Below are positions 14,728-45,343 of a stretch of DNA of 64,000 nucleotides, one piece after another. Within the stretch, counting starts at the first letter, position 1; every line of letters begins with the position of its first letter. Source of the DNA: Plasmodiophora brassicae (Eukaryota); contig CP145420.1 in assembly GCA_036867785.1 (NCBI GenBank), positions 186,001-250,000 on the forward strand, in the 5' to 3' direction. Under the pieces are notes generated by a model. It saw only the letters and a list, made by a program, of their open reading frames with translations, was not told the origin of the DNA and made no database searches. The translations under genes and the position numbers were made by a program.

Positions 14728-15994
14728 CCGTCGCGTTGAGCAGTGCGAACATTCGTACAGCAGTTACCTCTTCACTTCATTCGTTTCGTGCGATGTCGAG
14801 GAAATTCAGCAAATGGTAGTGCTTTGTCCGCCACGACTTGTATGCACGGGCATCCTCCTGCGGCAAAATGTGGCACTGCACGTACAAATACGTGTAGCTA
14901 TTGCATGCCGCGTATGGGGTGTTTCAACCGGCAGAAATCATTCTCGTTACTGTACAGGAATCCATCAGAGAGCCGATGTTCTCGCGCTTGCCATCACCGG
15001 AGCCAGACGGCTGTCATCATAGGGAGCGCCGTAGGTCTACACGTTGACTGTCCTTCGAATGACAAGTGTCATCCCACCTACGAGTCACTTGTGGTCATAC
15101 GTTATCAGTTGGCCACTCTTACGCGTTCGACACGAAGGTGGTTTACTAGCTGGTCAGGTCGCTGGCCATCATCGTTTCTGCTTCTTCGGCTTGGGCGGTT
15201 TGCGCTATGATACCTGGAAGCCCGTGCCGGAGGGCATCGACCTTGCGCTAGGCAGCAGATTGGCGACTTTGGGGTACGATGGGACGCAGTGTGGACACAC
15301 GTCGGCACAGGGCACAATGTGGGTCTACAGCATTTGGACACAATCCCCTTCACGGTACAGAGTTTAACCTTACTTTAGTCACCCCTCGAGATAGTCACAA
15401 CCCCCACTTTAGTCACAAGAATCCAGGAACAATTGTCCCCATAACCAGAGTTCACGCGATATAAGAACCAGGGCTTAAGGATTTTATTAATGCCGAATCC
15501 TTAAGCCTTCCACCAAGAAGATACCAACGGGTTCTTTGGTTTCGCAGGTCCTCCCGATATCCAGGTCAGTTCCTTCAGAACAGAGTCGAGTTCGACAGCG
15601 TGACGACCACTTAACGTCAGACTTGACTTTTGCTGGAAACGTGGAATTATTAGGCCAAGCCCAGACAGGAACGGGATCGCTATCGCGACCAAAGAGTTTT
15701 TCGGCCTGGTGGAGTGTGTTAGGAGCAACCTTGATTTTAACACAGAACGCACACTCGTGCTTACCTCCGGATTGTACAACGGAGTGCCTGAGCCGTAAAA
15801 ATCTATTGCCTTGAACAGCGAGGAATTACCCGCAAACAAACAGCATGCATCGGATCGTGGACATAGTTGGTCCGATGGCCGAAATTTGACAGGATGCCGA
15901 CAGAATACACATCATAGCCAGGGTCACGAAATCCGCCCCGATCTTCCAAATTCCCTGCAGTCATACGACGCCGAATATCGTCATCGAAAGTCTG

Positions 15995-16293
15995 GGTGTT
16001 GCATCCCAAACTCTAGGTGTTGAATCCCAAACTCTAGGTGTTGAATCCCAAACTCTAGGTGTTGAATCCCAAACTCTAGGTGTTGAATCCCAAACTCTAG
16101 GTGTTGAATCCCAAACTCTAGGTGTTGAATCCCAAACTCTAGGTGTTGAATCCCAAACTCTAGGTGTTGAATCCCAAACTCTAGGTGTTGAATCCCAAAC
16201 TCTAGGTGTTGAATCCCAAACTCTAGGTGTTGAATCCCAAACTCTAGGTGTTGAATCCCAAACTCTAGGTGTTGAATCCCAAACTCTAGGTGT
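15995..16293. repeat. Minisatellite, 21-bp unit GGTGTTGAATCCCAAACTCTA, about 14 near-identical copies
   Basis: Directly visible head-to-tail repeat with no spacers. Confidence 0.97.
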
Positions 16294-16465
16294 GACGTGC
16301 CAAATATTGGGTGCTCCAACCTTTTTGCCCCCCCCCCCTTTGACCTCAAGAAGATAAATATCCCGTCGCAAATGTGCCAAAAAAGGGGGGAAATCCGAGG
16401 ATGTCCGAAAGTCAAGACTAAGAGCCATGTCAGAGAGTCAAGCGCCAGTGGGAACTCCCACTCCG

Positions 16466-16753
16466 CTGGATCTTGGTATTTTGGCCTCGATGGCGCAGCT
16501 GGACAAGCTGCTAGGAACGGCCTGAAGCTGTTGTTGCAGCTAGCGACTGACGATGTACATAGATACGGGTGCTGTCCCGACGACGACGACGGGCACGCGC
16601 GACAACGGCTCCGGGAAGCCGGATGTGTATCCGCGGATCGGGAAACCGTTACGTTACCTGTATTTTACAGTGTAAAGTTGGTTCCTGAGAGGTGTATTTT
16701 ACATGTAAAAAACAGGCTTGTTAAAAACACCCCTTTATTACAACAATTCCATA
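16466..16753. mobile_element. Truncated copy of the TATGGAATTG-TIR MITE (right end only)
   Basis: About 16620-16753 is nearly identical to 44475-44605 and ends in AACAATTCCATA. Left end is missing. Confidence 0.8.
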
Positions 16754-16823
16754 GCCCCGTGCCAGTGCCACGGGGGGCCGTGGCCCGTTGGGCGTGGATC
16801 CTGCCGCGATCGCACCCAGTTCC

Positions 16824-17165
16824 ATGTTTGTCGTCTCGCAGAGGCTCAATCGTTCTGTGCGACGTCGCATGGCGGACCGCGAACAGGTCGACGCCCGCCG
16901 GGACGGTGCGCGTGACGGCGCCCGAGACGAGACCATCGCGCGTCTTCTTCGCTATGCGAGCGAGCCGGAAGGAAGCCGCCAGGATGTCCATTCTCTCTAT
17001 CATGAGATAATGGACGCCTGGCCGGTTGACCTGTTCTCTCGGGAAGTAGCTGACGGGTCGGTGCGACTGCTGTGGTCAATGTACCTTCCCGAGATCGCTG
17101 CGCCACGACCTTCGTCGACAAGCCCGCAGCCGCCATCGTCCCCACGCTCGGATCCGGAACAGTAG
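16824..17165 (+). CDS. Orphan ~113-aa protein, copy 1 of 4 (possibly a terminal exon)
   Basis: MFVVSQRLNRSVRRRMADREQ...YASEPEGSRQDVHSLYHEIMDAWP...SPRSDPEQ. Frame is preserved in all four diverged copies. Confidence 0.55.
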   Translation: MFVVSQRLNRSVRRRMADREQVDARRDGARDGARDETIARLLRYASEPEGSRQDVHSLYHEIMDAWPVDLFSREVADGSVRLLWSMYLPEIAAPRPSSTSPQPPSSPRSDPEQ

Positions 17166-17407
17166 TCCAAGCGCCCAACACGGCTTGCCGGTTCAATACG
17201 ACAATGGAGTAGGCGCTATTCGCCAAGTGTCGACATCCAGAAAATGTACGCCAACTCGCGTGCTCCGAGCGAATTGGGATGGAGCTGATTGATCTGGTTT
17301 GCAGACAATGTTTCCTTTAATATCATCTGAAAATCTCTTCTGCACATGATCAACACTCTGGTGGCCCGGTACGAGCACCTCGTGACGGTGTCTCCCAGCA
17401 GGGGCCG

Positions 17408-17640
17408 GGGCATAAACTTATTCAGAAACGCCGGCCACGAATCCGAGTATAACGCAGGCATACAGTGTGTGCAGCAACGACAACCCGTTAAACACACCTC
17501 GCTAGATCGGCTCACGATCAGTGAAAGGCAACAATCTGGGCACTGTTCGCATGTTGGACTGGACGCATACCTCAGACTACAGCGACACGTACAGTTCGTA
17601 TAGATAGTTTTTCGAGCGCTCCCGGCTCTATCGATCCGAT
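17408..17640 (-). pseudogene. Internally deleted remnant of the secreted LRR gene
   Basis: Matches LRR exons and introns at about 26140-26370, but is joined directly to sequence homologous to about 24170-24365. Confidence 0.7.
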
Positions 17641-17695
17641 ATTCGACAGGAAGGTGGTTTACTAGCTGGTCACGTCGCTTTGGGCGGTTTGCGAT

Positions 17696-17875
17696 TGATT
17701 CATAATGGGAAGGCTAGCGACAGTGGCCGACCCATGAGTCACGACGACGTGACGCAACTGGTGCACAGTGGCGACCGTGCCACTGTGTGTGCGACGTCAT
17801 GGGGACGTCGGCTTCCCCCACGTTAGATACACTGGGGACTTTCACTTTCCTAAGCGCTTCGAACTGCTTGAATCA
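17696..17875 (+). repeat. 5' LTR of the Copia element
   Basis: Direct repeat of 22642-22821. Confidence 0.97.
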
Positions 17876-17896
17876 GATTAAGAGTCCCACTCTCTG

Positions 17897-19366
17897 ATGG
17901 CGACGATCCCAAGCATCCCAGCCGACCTGGCCCAAGCAGAGGCCGTGATCGCCCAGATAAGCGCTGCGCTGTCCGAGGCCCAGCGGCAGCAGGATCGGCT
18001 GGAGGCGGAGGTTGAACGTCTGCAAGCAGCGGCGGCCGGGAGCGGGACCGGCCAGCGCGAGAACGCGGCGCTCAAGGATCGTCTGGCGCGGCTGGAAGCT
18101 GCGCAGAAGGAAAGGCTGACGGGCCTGAAGGAGTCCGGCATCAAGATCTCCGTCCAGCTGAAGGGCAAGGACAATTACCTGGTCTGGGCGTCGTCGATGA
18201 CGACGATGCTCAAGAAGTCGGGCCTGCAAAAGGCCGTGGAGCCCGCGACGCGCGGGCACAACGAAGAGCCGGCGTCGGAGCAAGAGAGGCTCCACGCAAT
18301 GTACGCTATCAAGAAGAACGTGCATGAAGACGAACTTCCCTTGATACTCGACATACCCGACGACCGTCCGGACCTGGCGTGGAGCGCCATCCAGACGGAG
18401 TATTCCGGCCAAACGGGCACGGACCTGGCGATGTTCGACATTCTTCTGTCAACAACAAAGCTTAAGGCGGGCGCCGACCTCACGGAGACCAAGGCGCACC
18501 TGACGGCGATGCGCGACCTGGGCATCAACCTGGCCCGGGCGGATCCGAATCGGACGAAGACTGAGTCGGACATGGCGACGAAGGTCCTTATCTCGCTGCC
18601 ATACACCGAGTACAAGGACTTAGTCAACGCGATGCTGCGCGGTCCCATCGGAGAGCTGACGCAAAGCAAGGTCCGCGCAGAAGTGCTCGCTCAGTACAAG
18701 CGGGGAGCGATAGAGCGCGGCGACGACGACAGCGGCTCCTCGGCGGCCATGACGACGACGGGGTTCTCCGGCAAGTGCTTCAACTGTGGAAAGGCTGGAC
18801 ACAGGGCGGCCGACTGCCGTAGCCGCAAGAAGACCGGCAACGCCGAGCGCGGCAAGGCCAGGAACGGCAAGCGGAAGGGGGGCAAAGAGGAAGGCGGTTC
18901 GGCGTCGATCGCGCTCCTGACGAGCCTGGCGGGCGTCGAGGACGCGCCGCGGAAGGGCATCCGCGACTTCATCGTCGACAACGCGGCGACGTGCGGCCAC
19001 GTGTCCACCCACAAGGCGCACTTCGAGGAGCTGGACTTCATCGCCGACAAGGACCGGCCGACGATCGGCGGCATCGGCCCGCAGCGAATCAAGGTCCATG
19101 CCAGGGGCAACGTCCGCCTCAAGCTGGCTAACGGCAAGTCGATCACGCTGACAAACGTCGCGTACGCGCCAGATGCATCCGCGAACATCTTCGCGGTGCG
19201 TTCGGCACTCCTGCAGCTCGGCAAGGACGGCAAGACGGGCGCGGAGCACCATGAGCAGACGCGCTCAGCCCGGCTCCTGGACGGGGCCGGAAGGACGATC
19301 GTGACCAGTACGGTCCGCAAGGGCCTGTACTACCTGGATCTGCACAAGGTCCAGGATTTCGAGTAG
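17897..19366 (+). CDS. gag: Copia ORF1: Gag (coiled coil, CCHC zinc knuckle) plus aspartic protease
   Basis: LKGKDNYLVW, zinc knuckle CFNCGKAGHRAADC, protease-like FIVDNAATCGHV...LTNVAYAPDASANIFAV, and KGLYYL. Confidence 0.92.
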   Translation: MATIPSIPADLAQAEAVIAQISAALSEAQRQQDRLEAEVERLQAAAAGSGTGQRENAALKDRLARLEAAQKERLTGLKESGIKISVQLKGKDNYLVWASSMTTMLKKSGLQKAVEPATRGHNEEPASEQERLHAMYAIKKNVHEDELPLILDIPDDRPDLAWSAIQTEYSGQTGTDLAMFDILLSTTKLKAGADLTETKAHLTAMRDLGINLARADPNRTKTESDMATKVLISLPYTEYKDLVNAMLRGPIGELTQSKVRAEVLAQYKRGAIERGDDDSGSSAAMTTTGFSGKCFNCGKAGHRAADCRSRKKTGNAERGKARNGKRKGGKEEGGSASIALLTSLAGVEDAPRKGIRDFIVDNAATCGHVSTHKAHFEELDFIADKDRPTIGGIGPQRIKVHARGNVRLKLANGKSITLTNVAYAPDASANIFAVRSALLQLGKDGKTGAEHHEQTRSARLLDGAGRTIVTSTVRKGLYYLDLHKVQDFE

Positions 19367-19371
19367 CGGGG

Positions 19372-22300
19372 GTGGCGCTGGCCGCCCCCGATCACGATCA
19401 TCCAAACCAGCCAGAAAACAAGAGCCCGAGCAAGGAGGAGCCGGCCGAGAAGAAGGAAACGCGCAAGCCCGCGGACGTAAAGCGCGACAGAACGATATCA
19501 TTGGCGGAGGCGCACGCGAGGTGCGGCCACCTGTCCACGATCACGATCAGAAAGGCAGTCAAGAACGGGGCAATCACCGGTCTCAACATCGACGAGGCCG
19601 ACCTGGCGAGCGACGAGGTGCCCAGGTGCAAGGTGTGCATCGAGGCCAACCTCAACCGAACGGCGATCCCGCGGAGACGGACACGGACGGTGCTCTCGAA
19701 GCTGCAGATCGTCGGGGCGGACCTGCAGACGTTCGACACCAGGTCGCATGACGGAAAGACGTACATGGCGTGCTACGTTGACCACGCGACTGGTGTCGGT
19801 GCCACGGTCAACCTGGCAAATAAGGGTGACCAGGAGCAAGTCGTCATGGACGTGCTGACCCGGCTCGAGGTCATGGGCGGCACACGCGTCGACACGTTCC
19901 GCGCCGACCAGGGCGGCGAGTTCACCTCGACGCGCCTGGCGAAGCTGCTGCGCGAGCGGGGAATCGCACAGGAGTTCAGCGACACGGACCGCCCGCACCA
20001 GAACGGTCTCGCGGAGACGTTCGGTGGCAAGATTGTCAAGATGATGCGCGCAGCTCGTGTCCAGTCAGGCGTCCCGCGCAAGTACTGGACCGAGAACGGG
20101 CGGCATCAGACGTGGGTAGCCAACCGCGTGCCGCTCCAACGACACGGCCACCGGACGACGCCAATCGAGGAACTGACGGGGGAACAAGCAGACCTGTCGA
20201 GGGCGATGCCATTCGGTTGCGAGGCGTGGGTCAGGATCCGGCGGCAAAAGAAGTGCAAGCTGGACGCCAGGGCCGAGCGCGCGGTCCACATGGGGGTGTG
20301 CATCGACAAGAAGGCGTACCGGCTGCTGCTGTGGCACAGCCGCAAGATGATCGAGTCTTCGGACGTGGTCTTCTTCCCCAACGAATTCCCGTTCAAGGAT
20401 GACAGCGGCTCCCGCGGAGAGGAGACCCGCAAGCGCCAAGAGACGGCGCAAGCCCAGCTGCAAGGAGGCGGCGATGGCGGTCAAGACGATCGTCATGGGC
20501 AAGAAGACGACGGCGGTCGGGACGATCGCGTCGCACGACAAGACGACGGCGATCGAGAAGGTCGCGTCGGTCAACAACAGGGCGGCGGCCAGGATGGCCG
20601 CGCCATTCAGCGAGGCGGCGGCGGGGACGACCGTGCCAGGGAACTCGCAGGTGCCGGTGAAGACCGGCATGACGGACGCGATGAGCAAGCAGCTCAGGGC
20701 GGCGGGGATCGAGGACCTGCTGCTCAAGGCGTCCCTGAACCGAGGCGGTCGACGCGCATCAGAGGAGCGCCCGCTCGGTTTGCCGACGTGGACTACGACG
20801 GCGAAGCGCGGCGCCAGAGGGCGGCCAGCGCCAGGGCGGCAGCAGGGGCTGCCGACAACGTCGACCAGGCGGCAGCAGCAGATGCTGTCGACCACGACAA
20901 CGAGGCCAACGACGACCCGGACAACGAGGACCAGGTCAACCAGGACGAGGCGCTCGAGAACGAGGACAGCTACCTGGAGGAGGAGGACGCTGGCAACGCG
21001 TTCCTCACTGAGTACGAGGCCGAGAACGGGCCTGACCGGGACAAGTACCTGGCGGCGCAGGTCGAGGAGATGCAGTCGCTGAAGGAAGCGGGCACGTATG
21101 AGATCGTGGACCGCCCGACCGACGCTCAAGTGCTGCCAACAATGTTCGTGCACACGACGAAGCGCGACGAGGACGGGGAGATCACGCGCCACAAGGCCCG
21201 CTTCTGCGTCAAGGGATGCTGCGACAAGTTCAAGGGCCAGAAGGAGACGTACTCGCCGACGCTCCGGTATGCGACGTTGCGCATCATGGTGGCGCTGGCG
21301 GCCATGCTGGGCGTGGTCATCCACCAGCTGGACGTTAAGACGGCGTTCCTGAATGGAGACCTGCCGTACCCGATCTACTGTGAACAGCCGAAGAACTTCG
21401 TGGTCGGAGGACGCGGCAAGGTGATGAAGCTCCTGAAGGCGCTGTACGGCCTGGTCGAGGCGCCGAAGCTCTGGTACGATAAGCTCGTATCAGTTCTGTT
21501 CGAAATCGGCTTCACAAGGGTGACCGGCGACCCGTGCCTGTTCGTTATGTTCACGACGAAGGACGGCCGCAGACAGATCACGATCCTCGGGGTGTTCGTG
21601 GACGACTTTATGATGTTTGGCACGGATCCCGACGTCATCGAGTACGTCAAGGCAGCGTTGGGCAAGAAGTTCAAGATGAAGGACCTCGGCATCGCGAGAT
21701 GGATCCTGGGGATGCGCATCAAGCAGGAGGCAACGCGCATCACGATCGACCAACAGCAGTACGCCAAGGAGGTGGTCGCGCGGTTCCAGACCGACATCGA
21801 CGAGGCAGCCGCCGGGCGCCGCTTGCGCGCGCCGGCCACGGCTCTGCCTGTCGGGCAGATTATGCCCCGGCGAACCGACGGTGTTCCGCACCAGCATGAG
21901 CGGTACCGCGAGGGCGTTGGTTGCCTGGCGCATCTGTCGATCGGCACGATGCCGACAATCACGCACGCGGTGTCGCAGCTGTCGCGTCACCTGAACAACC
22001 CGGGTCGGGAGCATTTCGAGGCGATGCTCCACGTGCTGCGATATGTCCAGAACAACACGGATGTCGGCATCATCTACGCGAAGAGCAAGACACCGGCGAC
22101 TGAATTCGACCCGATGGCACTGAACAAAGACAACGTGAAGGAGTCGGAGCCCCGGGCGGCGGTCGACTCGGACTTTGCGATGGACCCGGACACATCCAAG
22201 TCGGTCACGGGATTCATCGTCACGCTGATGGACGCAGCTGTGAGCTGGCGATCGAAGCAGCAAAGCCTGGTGGCGACCTCCTCAGCGCACGCGGAGTACG

Positions 22301-22635
22301 TGGCGGCCAGCGAGCTGGCGCGTGAAGTAGTGTGGGTCCGGATGCTCCTCACCGACATCGGGTTCACTCTGACGGACCCGTCGATTGTGCTGGAGGACAA
22401 CACGGCTGCCGAGCAGATGGTGAAGACGCTCGGGGTCACGGACCGGAACAAGCACATTCGGGTGAAATGGCACTATGTGCGAGAGTGCGTCCAGGAGGGA
22501 CTGCTCCGGTTCAAGCGCGTGGCGTCAAAGAACAATCCGGCGGACGCGCTCACCAAGCCGACCACTCGTGAACCTGTGGAGGTCATGAAGAGGGCGGCCG
22601 GGATGGGTCGGGTGGACCTGTCGCTGGCGCCTTAG
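19372..22635 (+). CDS. pol: Copia ORF2: integrase, reverse transcriptase and RNase H (-1 frame relative to ORF1)
   Basis: HARCGH...CKVC (HHCC). Integrase ADL/RADQGGEF/QNGLAE and KLDARA. RT motifs HKARFCVKG, HQLDVKTAFLNG, KALYGL, VFVDDF. RNase H motifs VDSDFA, SSAHAEYVA, EDN, KHIRVKWHYVRE, NPADALTK. Confidence 0.96.
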   Translation: MALAAPDHDHPNQPENKSPSKEEPAEKKETRKPADVKRDRTISLAEAHARCGHLSTITIRKAVKNGAITGLNIDEADLASDEVPRCKVCIEANLNRTAIPRRRTRTVLSKLQIVGADLQTFDTRSHDGKTYMACYVDHATGVGATVNLANKGDQEQVVMDVLTRLEVMGGTRVDTFRADQGGEFTSTRLAKLLRERGIAQEFSDTDRPHQNGLAETFGGKIVKMMRAARVQSGVPRKYWTENGRHQTWVANRVPLQRHGHRTTPIEELTGEQADLSRAMPFGCEAWVRIRRQKKCKLDARAERAVHMGVCIDKKAYRLLLWHSRKMIESSDVVFFPNEFPFKDDSGSRGEETRKRQETAQAQLQGGGDGGQDDRHGQEDDGGRDDRVARQDDGDREGRVGQQQGGGQDGRAIQRGGGGDDRARELAGAGEDRHDGRDEQAAQGGGDRGPAAQGVPEPRRSTRIRGAPARFADVDYDGEARRQRAASARAAAGAADNVDQAAAADAVDHDNEANDDPDNEDQVNQDEALENEDSYLEEEDAGNAFLTEYEAENGPDRDKYLAAQVEEMQSLKEAGTYEIVDRPTDAQVLPTMFVHTTKRDEDGEITRHKARFCVKGCCDKFKGQKETYSPTLRYATLRIMVALAAMLGVVIHQLDVKTAFLNGDLPYPIYCEQPKNFVVGGRGKVMKLLKALYGLVEAPKLWYDKLVSVLFEIGFTRVTGDPCLFVMFTTKDGRRQITILGVFVDDFMMFGTDPDVIEYVKAALGKKFKMKDLGIARWILGMRIKQEATRITIDQQQYAKEVVARFQTDIDEAAAGRRLRAPATALPVGQIMPRRTDGVPHQHERYREGVGCLAHLSIGTMPTITHAVSQLSRHLNNPGREHFEAMLHVLRYVQNNTDVGIIYAKSKTPATEFDPMALNKDNVKESEPRAAVDSDFAMDPDTSKSVTGFIVTLMDAAVSWRSKQQSLVATSSAHAEYVAASELAREVVWVRMLLTDIGFTLTDPSIVLEDNTAAEQMVKTLGVTDRNKHIRVKWHYVRECVQEGLLRFKRVASKNNPADALTKPTTREPVEVMKRAAGMGRVDLSLAP

Positions 22636-22641
22636 GGCGGC

Positions 22642-22821
22642 TGATTCATAATGGGAAGGCTAGCGACAGTGGCCGACCCATGAGTCACGACGACGTGACG
22701 CAACTGGTGCACAGTGGCGACCGTGCCACTGTGTGTGCGACGTCATGGGGACGTCGGCTTCCCCCACGTTAGATACACTGGGGACTTTCACTTTCCTAAG
22801 CGCTTCGAACTGCTTGAATCA
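22642..22821 (+). repeat. 3' LTR of the Copia element
   Basis: Direct repeat of 17696-17875, preceded by a short purine-rich AGGGCGGC. Confidence 0.97.
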
Positions 22822-22894
22822 GCGATTCGATATCTGGATGCCCGTGCCGGAGGGCATCTATCTTGCACTACTTTTAAGTACGATGGGACGCAGT

Positions 22895-23540
22895 TATGGA
22901 ATTGTTGTAATAAAGGGGTGTTTTTTACAAGCCTGTTTTTTACATGTAAAATACACCACTCAGGAACCAACTTTACACTGTAAAATACAGGTAACGTAAG
23001 GGTTTCCCGATCCATCCCAGAGCCTTCGTTGTGCGTGCGCGTCGTCGTCGTCGGGGGCGAGCGGAATCACAAGTCCTGCAACCGCGTGCACTCCCGGCTA
23101 CGCGCTCGAGTATCGGGATGCAACGTCGAGCAAGGAACTGGGATCGCATTCAAGTGCCCAGATGAATCGCCGTACAAAGATACGCGAGATGACCCCTTTC
23201 ACACGTTGAACCGGGTCGCTTGGTTCGGAAGTACGTGACGTCTTTGACGAAGAGCCAGACGATGATTCCGATGACGAAGACGTAACTCGACTGCAGTTCG
23301 CAGGGTTCGTTGGCATTGCCGAGCCAGGCACACTTGCCGAGGCGATTTCGGACACACATTTGTACCCAGTTGGTGACGAAGAGATCATCAAATCTGGTCA
23401 GGTTGTCAGGACCGTGACCATGGTATGAAGGCGTACTGCGAGGGGGGCGCAACCCCCTGCTGTTTTAAACATGTTTTTTACGTGTAAAATACATGTATTT
23501 TACACTCCACCAGCCATTCTCTGTTTTTAACAATTCCATA
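22895..23540. mobile_element. Non-autonomous DNA transposon (MITE), TIR TATGGAATTGTT, 8-bp TSD GACGCAGT
   Basis: TATGGAATTGTT...AACAATTCCATA with GACGCAGT at 22887-22894 and 23541-23548. Inverted relative to the copy at 44119. Confidence 0.92.
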
Positions 23541-27330: not shown

Positions 27331-27397
27331 CAGTGCCAGTGCCACGGGGAGCCGTGGCCCGTTGGACGTGGATCCTGCCGCGATCGCACCCAGTTCC

Positions 27398-27739
27398 ATG
27401 TTTGTCGTCTCACAGACGCTCAATCGTTCTGTGCGACGTCGCATGGCGGATTGCGACCAGGTCGACGCCCGCCGGGACGGTGCGCGTAACGGCGCCCGAG
27501 ACGAGACCATCGAGCGTCTTCTCGGCTATGCGAGCGAGCCGGAAGGAAGCCGCCAGGATGTCCATTCTCTCTATCATGAGATAATGGACGCCTGGCCGGT
27601 TGACCTGTTCTCTCGGGAAGCTGCTGACGCATCGGTACGCCTGCTGTGGTCAATGTACCTTCCCCAGATCGCTGCGCCACGACCCTCGTTGGCAAGCCCG
27701 CAGCCGCCCGCGTCTCCACGCTCGGATCCGGAACAGTAG
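27398..27739 (+). CDS. Orphan ~113-aa protein, copy 3 of 4
   Basis: MFVVSQTLNRSVRRRMADCDQ...SPRSDPEQ. Confidence 0.55.
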   Translation: MFVVSQTLNRSVRRRMADCDQVDARRDGARNGARDETIERLLGYASEPEGSRQDVHSLYHEIMDAWPVDLFSREAADASVRLLWSMYLPQIAAPRPSLASPQPPASPRSDPEQ

Positions 27740-27980
27740 TCCAAGCGCCCAACACGGCTTGCCGGTTCAATACGACAATGGAGTAGGCGCTGTTCGCCAA
27801 GTGTCGACATCCAGAAAATGTATGCCAACTCCCGTGCTCCGAGCGAATTGGGATGGAGCTGATTGATCTGGTTTGCAGACAATGTTTCCTTTAATATCAT
27901 CTGAAAACCTCTTCTGCACATGCTCAACATTCTGGTGGCCCGGTACGAGCACCTCGAGACGGTGTCTCCCAGCAGCGGCC

Positions 27981-28222
27981 GGGGCATAAACTTATTCAGA
28001 AACGCCGGCCACAAATCCGAGTATAACACAGGCATACAGTGTGTGCAGCAACGGCAACCCGTTAAACACACCTCGCTCGATCGGCTTACGATCAGTGGAA
28101 AGGCAACAATTCTTGGCACTGTTCGCATGTTGAACTGGACGCATACCTCAGACTACAGCGACACGTACAGTTCGTAGAGCTGCGATAGCTTTCGAACGCT
28201 CCCGGCTCTATCGATCCGATAT
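27981..28222 (-). pseudogene. Internally deleted remnant of the secreted LRR gene (second copy)
   Basis: Same deletion junction as 17408-17640. Confidence 0.7.
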
Positions 28223-28485
28223 TCGACAGGAAGGTGGTTTACTAGCTGGTGACGTCGCTTGGGCGATTTGCGCTTCGATATCTGGATGCCCGTGCCGGAG
28301 GGAATCGATCTTGCACTAGGCAGCAGATCAGCGACTTTTGGGTACGATGGAGGCAGTACTGTGGACGCAAGCCGGTACAGGGCGCAACGTGGATTGTACA
28401 GCATTGGTATATAACCGATCAGCCGCCCCGCAGCTGCCCCAGAACTGCCCGACTGGCGCAGTCCGTAACTGCCCAACAGACACTG

Positions 28486-28651
28486 GCGCTGTGACAATTA
28501 TTAGGGGAACGTGCGCTGTGACAATTAGGGGAACGTGCGCTGTGACAATTAGGGGAACGTGCGCTGTGACAGTTAGGGGAACGTGCGCTGTGACAATTAG
28601 GGGAACGTGCGCTGTGACAATTAGGGGAACGTGCTCCCCGACAATTAGGGA
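28486..28651. repeat. Minisatellite, 24-bp unit GTGACAATTAGGGGAACGTGCGCT, about 6.5 copies
   Basis: Directly visible tandem repeat. Confidence 0.95.
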
Positions 28652-28904
28652 GTAATAGGCATTTTAAGACATCAAATCTATCGTGTATTTGGACTGCCGA
28701 AGCCGTCGGTTGCCGTGGACGTTTATTCAAACTGCGCGGCTGCGCGACCCCCGTCGCGGCCGTGCCATAACATACGGCGTGACGAGGGCCCAAAAGTCGC
28801 ACATGTCGGGGGGGGGGGGGGGGGGGGCACAGTCGCACTTTTCGATAGTGCGCCCGTCGGGCAGATCACGGTTAGTGAAAGGGTAAAAGCAGGCTGACGT
28901 AACC

Positions 28905-43538: not shown

Positions 43539-45343
43539 ATGATTAGTAATGTGGTGGCTGAGGTCGCTCATTCAGCGGTGTTTACGCGGGTGGGGCCGTT
43601 CACCCTATTGCTGTTGGGGGCGTTGGTGACCACTGCCGCCGGGACAACGAAAACGATATACGCTGTTGTGCCCGACGGCGCACCCGCGTTCGTAATGCAG
43701 TGCGATGCGGGAACGTACATTAGCAGCGTTACGTTCGCATCCTGGGGAACTCCAATTGGTCAGTCGCCACCGTTCCAAGTCTCGTCTTCGTGTGCGTACA
43801 AGAACAGCGTGGCCGTCGTCCAGTCGTCATGCCAGTACCAGACAGGTTGCACTCTGCAGGCGACGTCGGCGTTCTTTGGGAGCGACCCTTGCCCAGGAAC
43901 AGCCAAATCGCTAGCTGTGGAAATGACGTGCAGTATAACCCCTCCGCAGACGTCCTGTACTGGCGGCGTTCGGGTCGACGGGCGCTGTGGGTCAGCAGCG
44001 TTCGGTTGGGCGAATTGCGCCTTTGGACAATGTTGCAGTCCAACGAACTGGTATTTGCAAGCATAGCATGTGCTCAATATTTGAAAATGACGACCGCCGC
44101 GTGTAGGTGTGGTACCACTATGGAATTGTTAAAAACAGAGAATGGCTGGTTGAGTGTAAAATACATGTATTTTACACGTAAAAAACATGTTTAAAACAGC
44201 AGGGGGCTGCGCCCCCTCGCAGTACGCCTTCATACCATGGTCACGGTCCTGACAACCTGACCAGATTCGATGACCTCTTCGTCACCAACGGGGTACAAAT
44301 GTGTGTCCGAAATCGCCTCGGGAAGTGTGCCTGCCTCGAAATGCCAACGAACCCTGCGAACCCCAGTCGCTTCGGTCCTATCGCGGCCAGCAGGCTATTT
44401 ACGAACAATCAACCACAACGACATGAGACAAGACGACGACGACGACGCGCACGCGAATGGCTCCTGGACGGCGGAGGTGTATCCGCGGATCGGGAAACCG
44501 TTACGTTACCTGTATTTTACAGTGTAAAGTTGGTTCCCGAGAGGTGTAATTTACATGTAAAAAACAGGCTTGTAAAAAACACCCCTTTATTACAACAATT
44601 CCATAGGTACCACGCCACAACACTGTGCCGTCCCGATTTGCACGCCAGCGACCAGTGCCCCAACAACGACAATGACGTGGGCACCAACGACAACAACGAC
44701 GACGAACCCGCCGTTGCCGTCAACAAGGCGTATTTCAACTCGACCATCCGCAAGAAGCAAACGGACGTCGACGCACTCTGCCACGCGATTCAAAAGTCGG
44801 CCTCCTCTTAGGAGATCGTCAGCCAAGTTAACACGCCCGGCACCTCTGACGAAAGTACCACATCCCACGACGCCTGCCACGATTGTAAAGACGACACCAG
44901 GTGCTCCAGTGAGAAGGTCGCCTTCGGCAAATCCTCGGGACAAGTTCACGTCGATGTCACTGGCGAAAACGCCGGCGTTGACAGCATATAAGCCAAGGTC
45001 GTCTCCAGTTGGGAGCCCGTATACGTGGCTCATCGTTCCTGGCGTCTCGGGTGGCGCTGCGTCATCTTCAACCGCTACCCATGCGACATTGCCCAGCTCG
45101 TCCTTTGTCATCTGGGGCACACTCAGCGTCCTGTTCGTGCTGGTGATAGCGGCCGCCCTATACTTGTTAAGCACGTTCGCGCCAAGACAACAAAGTTCGC
45201 CTCCAGGTCGTTCACCGCTGTACCAAGCGCCCGAACGCAGACCGGACCCCCTGTCTAGTCCAGTCGATACGCTTGACACGTTCCAGCACGGCGAGGCGGT
45301 CTACGTCGGCAGGCTGCAACAAAGACAACCGCCCGCTTTGTAA
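43539..45343 (+). pseudogene. SUEL/galactose-binding lectin + hevein (CBM18) chitin-binding + Ser/Thr stalk + TM protein, interrupted by a MITE
   Basis: Lectin motifs ISSVTFASWGTPIG...C...FFGSDPCPGTAKSLAVEMTC. Hevein motif DGRCG...CAFGQCCSPTNW|CGTT..HC. Removing the intron and the MITE plus one TSD restores the frame into ORF 44672-45343, which contains a TM helix. Confidence 0.85.
44119..44605. mobile_element. MITE, TIR TATGGAATTGTT, 8-bp TSD GGTACCAC
   Basis: Perfect 12-bp TIR. GGTACCAC at 44111-44118 and 44606-44613. Confidence 0.95.

Follow-up and report, generated by a model that had tools for sequence, protein, structure and literature searches.

A conserved candidate -1 frameshift signal behind the protease of a Ty1/Copia retrotransposon from Plasmodiophora brassicae

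How long terminal repeat (LTR) retrotransposons hold Pol below Gag is a standing question, and it is raised by a Copia element of Plasmodiophora brassicae. The element lies in a stretch of 64,000 nucleotides (GenBank assembly GCA_036867785.1, contig CP145420.1, positions 186,001 to 250,000 of the forward strand), which was analysed as a whole and is called the window; all coordinates are those of the window. The first open reading frame of the element (ORF1) encodes Gag and the protease (PR) and then stops. The second (ORF2) encodes the integrase (IN), reverse transcriptase (RT) and RNase H (RH) in another frame. How are these enzymes made? Programmed -1 ribosomal frameshifting after the protease is highly probable from the sequence evidence, and would provide abundant Gag-PR and rare full Pol polyprotein. 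A preliminary description, made from the letters of the window alone, had read the junction in this way, and copies and distant relatives of the element support that reading. The case is carried by conservation across lineages rather than by the identical LTRs of the element.

The junction between ORF1 and ORF2

As read from the sequence, ORF1 ends CAG (19352-54), GAT (19355-57), TTC (19358-60), GAG and TAG (19364-66), and ORF2 is open across this point in the -1 frame relative to ORF1. The preliminary description gave this arrangement with exact coordinates, and it placed the break correctly, after the protease of a Copia element whose ORF1 carries Gag and a CCHC knuckle ahead of the protease. 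The features of the junction are as follows.

17897..19366, + strand: ORF1, 489 amino acids from ATG 17897; Gag, CCHC knuckle and aspartic protease, ending Q-D-F-E-stop
19255..22635, + strand: ORF2, 1126 codons stop to stop, -1 frame, used from the shift site
19354..19360, + strand: slippery heptamer G_GAT_TTC, in the 0 frame of ORF1
19361..19366, + strand: spacer GAG TAG, 6 nt; its TAG is the stop of ORF1 and abuts the stem
19367..19390, + strand: GC-rich stem-loop, 10 bp, predicted frameshift stimulator

The heptamer, 6-nt spacer and 10-bp stem noted earlier were confirmed, and the stem is predicted to fold stably. Its arms (19367-76 and 19381-90, 10 bp including one G-U) enclose a GCTG loop. 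The folding energy is -24.3 kcal/mol (z -4.3), none of 200 shuffles of the 31-nt piece was equally stable, and the hairpin ranks in the best 0.2% among 2,546 35-nt segments of the element. GGATTTC at 19354 is the sole GGATTTY or X_XXY_YYZ heptamer on the + strand of the element, and one of the six GGATTTY sites in the window has a comparable hairpin downstream. The architecture had been called canonical. This holds for the spaced, stable hairpin, but G_GAU_UUC does not follow the strict X_XXY_YYZ rule and is instead the known variant G_GAU_UUY. In pea enation mosaic virus (PEMV), a -1 site made up of G_GAU_UUU and a stop 3 nt further along has been tested, and mutagenesis showed that both matter (PMC4737148, PMC5009743), and G_GAU_UUY is given as the frameshift site of insect flaviviruses (PMC4342338). 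Pairing between the loop and downstream sequence reached at most 4 nt, which gives no support for a pseudoknot in a search that did not extend to long-range elements. Rfam returned zero matches across the whole element.

The first ATG of ORF2, at 19765, is codon 171, and the HHCC motif of the integrase stands earlier, at codon 87. Because this ATG lies past the motif, a start there could not yield a whole integrase. A database protein labelled Plasmodiophora brassicae (P0151) begins at this very ATG.

Ribosomes translating Gag-PR would pause when GAU occupies the P site and UUC or UUU the A site, held by the hairpin 4-7 nt ahead and probably also by the stop at its foot. Most would terminate and release Gag-PR, and a minority would slip back one base and continue into Gag-PR-IN-RT-RH. 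The slippage would be tandem, with tRNA-Phe re-pairing fully on UUU and tRNA-Asp partly on GGA. It is from the observed anatomy, frames and conservation and the predicted RNA structure that we infer slippage, its efficiency and a protease made 1:1 with capsid.

Conservation in copies and relatives

The junction is 100% identical in 9/9 matches in the host's own genome, and a 4.8-kb comparison with the window copy showed 1-2 base differences in each of six other copies. Other copies with a single continuous ORF had been named in the preliminary description as evidence that would count against frameshifting; all nine matches share the break, and the own-genome searches found no continuous-ORF master copy of the family. 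Contigs of four sequencing runs from four studies also span the junction without an indel, a substitution or a joint. These contigs are of unassigned strand and drop rare variants, and the runs are only presumed to be RNA, so that their depth is uninformative on sense expression. The own-genome copies are nearly identical and not independent, and the real test therefore lies with distant relatives.

Relatives at the DNA level were sought by scanning for the peptide end with its codons left free (CAR GAY TTY), which finds QDF-type ends only. The scan gave 74 hits, 71 in metagenomes and 3 in viral contigs; a hidden Markov model identified five of them as relatives, and the other 69 served as controls. 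The relatives (L101, L103, L111, L139 and L157) share about 45-60% protein identity among themselves and with the window element. All five read CAG GAT TTT, whereas GGAT occurs in just 22 of the 69 controls. Upstream ORF1 codons of the six loci favour the other spellings (TTT:TTC 1:30, GAT:GAC 24:63), and yet the shift site has GAT in 6/6 loci and TTT in 5/6, opposite to that bias. The heptamer is conserved at the nucleotide level beyond what the protein needs. A stop in the 0 frame follows within three codons in all five relatives versus 6/69 controls, and the run of T at the site is at least four long in each relative, compared to three in the window.

The hairpin is retained in the same way. 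It starts 4-7 nt after the heptamer in all five relatives and is GC-rich, with a differing sequence in each. Predicted energies at the six loci range from -16 to -25 kcal/mol (z -2.0 to -4.8), placing the hairpins of the relatives in the best 0.7-3.1% of their own loci (0.2% in the window), and none of 68 controls reached -15 kcal/mol. The mean folding energy peaks at the hairpin offset and fades within 10 nt. In 5/6 loci, the window included, the integrase H-motif is reached by reading on in the -1 frame; L103 stops before it. The conservation proposed earlier as a check is thus found for the heptamer, stop, hairpin and -1 frame, but compensatory changes could not be counted in stems that do not align. 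Stem positions and stability are kept, but sequence, length and register vary from one hairpin to the next, so that covariation is not scorable. L101 and L157 were also considered for a second conserved frameshift about 400 nt further downstream. This was rejected, as the two breaks differ and resemble deletions and both L111 and the window element are open there.

Protein relatives end at the same place. The first pair of homologues to be identified, at 41% local identity, both end at the same column, with QDF and one further residue. When 1.84 billion cluster representatives were searched with a profile, 150 proteins were listed, and the end motif [YF]x[DN][LVI]xxxQDF is present in 25 of these listed clusters, the window's own included. 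Four of the 25 end at F, 19 end one residue later and one four residues later. The last, P0009, is a protein record only; it reads in frame past QDF into the integrase, and its two parts form one colinear chain. On the ORF2 side, the nine closest relatives (46-55% identity) have no Gag or protease Pfam match, and in five of six distant relatives (23-27% identity) one chain includes the protease domain as well. A quick-search tree was built from RT-RNase H (35 rows, those of 54 candidates that passed the RT-RH filter, with no references from named Copia clades such as FunCo1, GalEa, CoDi, Osser or Hydra). In it, the ten ORF2-only rows form one branch with a Shimodaira-Hasegawa-like approximate likelihood-ratio support (SH-aLRT) of 99, and the lineage sits on a long stem. 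In loci L059, L061 and L062, Gag and protease are present by Pfam. The source contigs are equally long within each of the ORF1/ORF2 protein pairs P0004/P0157 and P0005/P0153, which suggests that the members of each pair come from the same element. In a search for longer fused protease forms (857-2445 amino acids), none of 628 candidates scored, which is weak evidence. Two alignment scans of viral contigs found zero relatives, the three pattern matches there being due to chance; a phage collection gave no match to the element, and the ESM Atlas gave generic Pol_BBD clusters only, with no host for the lineage. The element belongs to an apparently undescribed Ty1/Copia lineage with a probable -1 shift behind the protease, and the signal at the junction is real, conserved and very probably functional.

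Five further proteins of the lineage (P0007, P0026, P0038, P0040 and P0044) have variant ends, such as S-D-F-Q after an insertion or Q-P-Y-F-R. A different shift site, or breakage, may account for these ends.

Alternative explanations of the junction

Several observations weigh against programmed frameshifting at this site. The DNA relatives number just five, all on short metagenome contigs, and the scan pattern could recover only ends of the QDF type. L101 and L157 are frame-broken further downstream and L103 is also broken, so that these three are taken as decayed copies because of the added breaks; the L139 contig ends shortly after the junction. The RNAalifold consensus is -1.8 kcal/mol, with a two-sided change at 3/8 pairs, which is no clear covariation. 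P0009 indicates that a single-frame form may exist (1/25), and the invariant CAG|G at the shift site also looks like a splice acceptor.

Could the break be inherited decay of a non-autonomous family, or an error of assembly? The near identity of the own-genome copies, which makes them dependent on one another, and the decay of 3/5 metagenome relatives are consistent with this. The identical LTRs, cited earlier against decay, are weak evidence alone, because they are also expected of a non-autonomous family that is young. The decay reading nevertheless fails, as relatives at 45-60% identity share the break point, the frame, the heptamer and a hairpin, and all but one of the 25 motif-bearing clusters stop 0-4 residues past QDF. 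The lack of a master copy in the own-genome searches and the unchanged junction in four independent runs also argue against it. Cross-lineage conservation effectively refutes decay and assembly error, which have next to no probability left. Slippage of the polymerase on the T run, giving a minority of in-frame transcripts, is very improbable. It would accommodate the four or more T in 5/5 relatives and the one in-frame protein, P0009, but the window has three T only, the spacing of the hairpin suits a ribosome and not a polymerase, and inserted letters are absent from the run contigs, which would drop rare variants.

Two other routes into ORF2 were considered. A spliced mRNA with CAG|G as its 3' splice site could join upstream Gag to ORF2 and skip the protease. 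Splicing is a common Copia strategy (PMC5580714), CAG is present in 6/6 DNA loci, and a joint resembling a spliced antisense intron of this element occurs in the runs. Splicing does not predict the T run, the spaced hairpin or the 0-frame stop, however, and P0026 ends S-D-F-Q, with no Gln ahead of the Asp. The upstream sequence shows no excess of pyrimidines (10-11/20), and none of the four runs has a sense-strand joint near 19354, a weak point given contigs of unassigned strand. Splicing at this site is judged quite improbable. Ribosomes might also reach ORF2 by termination and reinitiation, by bypass or by non-AUG initiation at the hairpin. The stop lies at the hairpin foot in most members, the frame of ORF2 has near-cognate start codons at 19372 and 19378, and a conserved stem is known at the end of sirevirus gag, where the mechanism is unsettled (PMC5009743). 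These routes leave unexplained the choice of GAT (6/6) and TTT (5/6) against codon bias and the fixed -1 register across the lineage. ORF2 lacks an ATG until 19765, and P0009 has both parts as one colinear chain. Reinitiation and its variants are unlikely, and programmed -1 frameshifting is retained as the explanation of the junction.

The element, its relatives among retrotransposons and its protease

The intact element spans 17696-22821 (about 5.1 kb). Its features outside the junction are listed here.

17691..17695, + strand: left target-site duplication GCGAT, 5 bp
17696..17875, + strand: 5' LTR, 180 nt, TG...CA, identical to the 3' LTR
17876..17890, + strand: primer-binding site, 15 nt, perfect complement of host tRNA-Lys(CTT) nucleotides 27-41
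about 18770-18820, + strand: CCHC knuckle of ORF1
18977-18985, + strand: protease motif D-N-A, catalytic Asp at 18977-79
about 19510-19644, + strand: HHCC pre-integrase region of ORF2
within 19255..22635, + strand: rve core, then an SH3-like domain
about 21094-21789, + strand: RVT_2 of ORF2, which also holds RNase H
22642..22821, + strand: 3' LTR, 180 nt, identical to the 5' LTR
22822..22826, + strand: right target-site duplication GCGAT

The LTRs, target-site duplication (TSD), primer-binding site (PBS) and domain order Gag-PR-IN-RT-RH identify the element as Ty1/Copia (Pseudoviridae). Pfam matches, some below the curated cut-off, fall in the order PF14223, PF00098, PF22936, PF13976, PF00665, PF25597 and PF07727, and the best Protein Data Bank match of the family profile is the Copia virus-like particle protein (E 2.7e-13). 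A perfect 5-bp TSD is present in 6/8 family copies with both ends read. The PBS pairs with the anticodon arm of the tRNA and is of the half-tRNA primer type. ORF2 ends 6 nt before the 3' LTR, and 22616-22641 holds just a short G-rich stretch and no clear polypurine tract.

Other observations concern the family in its own genome. At 22513 the window copy has A, whereas six other full copies and 3/3 covering runs have G. A 54-nt segment (18125-18178) is skipped in 4/4 runs and has minus-strand ends GT...AG (GTAATT ... CTCCTTCAG); it is missing from none of the eight full ORF1 copies in the own genome. The probable source of the skip is an antisense RNA of the element that has been spliced; the alternative is a variant carrying an in-frame deletion. 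Four loci, L065 (G000:C3), L067 (C7), L066 (C5) and L055 (C11:744 kb), are rearranged or older family members: one has inverted segments, one has an internal deletion, one is about 90% identical and lacks the junction region, and one is reduced to Gag (about 33-36% identical) but shares the PBS motif.

The insertion interrupts a repeated unit (16759-17693 and 22822-22870), and the site is seen empty in a paralogue of 94% identity at 27333-28318. Inverted arms (84%) lie at 16576-16764 and 22884-23055, with one more copy near 44434-44606, and point to a DNA-transposon-like repeat. Tandem arrays with units of 21 nt and 24 nt lie at 15924-16376 and 28477-28668. A separate multi-copy family of the same genome (L057:2179-6752, L058:2759-7368 and L068:1983-6945) has the look of a Gypsy/Copia chimera. 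Its Ty3-type Gag (PF03732, PF19259) ends at G_GGA_AAC followed by 7 nt and a hairpin; a Gypsy-type protease (PF08284, PF13975) comes next, and then integrase and RVT_2 in Copia order. Its RT groups with Copia rows in the tree, and its -1 frame is open in L057 and L058 and interrupted in L068.

The LTRs, 5-bp TSD, Gag-PR-IN-RT-RH order, RVT_2 and Copia Gag are shared with Ty1, Ty2, Ty4, Tca2, copia, BARE1, EVD, SIRE and Bianca, as is the need for less Pol than Gag. Ty1, Ty2 and Ty4 use a +1 shift, Tca2 a stop codon, Drosophila copia, BARE1 and EVD splicing, and SIRE and Bianca two ORFs; other Copia elements have a single ORF. The two-part forms described in the sources available all break before the protease (PMC5580714, PMC7175516, PMC5009743). 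The preliminary description had likewise stated that Copia elements mostly use a single ORF, a +1 shift, splicing or readthrough, with the protease in Pol, in agreement with this literature. Unlike these elements, with one ORF or a break between Gag and PR, the window element breaks after PR, and by -1. According to the REXdb table, GAG-PROT followed by INT-RT-RH prevails in 0/16 plant Copia lineages, five of them marked 'ND' (PMC6317226, Additional file 5), and GAG-PROT as the first ORF is given only for Ogre and Retand of Ty3/Gypsy (PMC6317226). Those two resemble the window element in encoding the protease with Gag, but they have the Gypsy order, and what links their parts is an intron in Ogre and a single stop codon in Retand, not a -1 shift. 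Sireviruses differ in their break after Gag, tRNA-Met PBS and extra 3' ORF; the window element has a tRNA-Lys PBS, and its ORF2 runs to within 6 nt of the 3' LTR. Fungal FunCo1 has a PBS, ATTAAGAGTC, that is also complementary to an internal part of tRNA-Lys, and the portion of its description that was available reports no frameshift (PMC5445492); the likeness concerns the PBS.

Viruses provide the closest signals. The PEMV2 umbravirus and insect flaviviruses share G_GAU_UUY, a stop 3 nt downstream and a 3' stem-loop (PMC4737148, PMC4342338, PMC5009743), and differ from the window element in its retrotransposon setting and its short simple hairpin without pseudoknot support. Mouse mammary tumour virus (MMTV) and human T-lymphotropic virus (HTLV) also shift downstream of PR to give Gag-Pro and Gag-Pro-Pol (PMC5009743). 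They are of another family, in which RT precedes IN, and both need two shifts. In avian sarcoma-leukosis virus, PR is at the end of gag and one shift is used. No description of a Copia element with a -1 shift after the protease was found in the full-text literature searched, a provisional result with most subscription papers, Repbase and GyDB outside its scope. The available main text of a preprint on the host pangenome (10.64898/2026.10.14.759018) treats Copia as a repeat class only and does not contain the word 'frameshift', and the available parts of PMC2806351, PMC3087523 and PMC12440569 hold nothing on such a shift.

The standard catalytic triad of retropepsins is D-S/T-G, and the protease of the window element departs from it with D-N-A. 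Its predicted model, with a predicted local distance difference test (pLDDT) score of 96.5, matches the retropepsin fold: the top five Foldseek matches are all the protease of xenotropic murine leukaemia virus-related virus (XMRV; best E 7.8e-3, probability 1.0), and there were none at E <= 0.001. The third residue of the triad is Ala in 23 of the 27 aligned lineage rows (DNA 9, DGA 9, DSA 3, DHA 1, DCA 1) and D-T-G is found in two, whereas S/T-G is present in 63 of 72 matched rows outside the lineage. A protease made as often as capsid might have been toned down. A tentative proposal, with rather less than an even chance, is that in a widespread Copia lineage the protease was transferred to the structural ORF, with a virus-style G_GAU_UUY -1 shift, and that the active site changed alongside (D-[N/G/S]-A), the protease at 1:1 with capsid then being attenuated or partly structural. 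If true, a retrotransposon would here parallel the Gag-PR design of avian retroviruses, and the stoichiometry of expression would have reshaped the chemistry of an enzyme in nature.

A -1 shift between protease and integrase would add a Copia answer to the question of how Pol is held below Gag. The conserved shift would mark a whole lineage, and its members offer short natural cassettes in which one heptamer is combined with six unrelated hairpins. A recently active family is misannotated by pipelines that call such elements 'frameshifted, dead' or that take the first ATG of ORF2 as its start, as for P0151. A second testable question is raised by the altered triad of the protease, and the finding as a whole points to -1 frameshifting in a rhizarian host.

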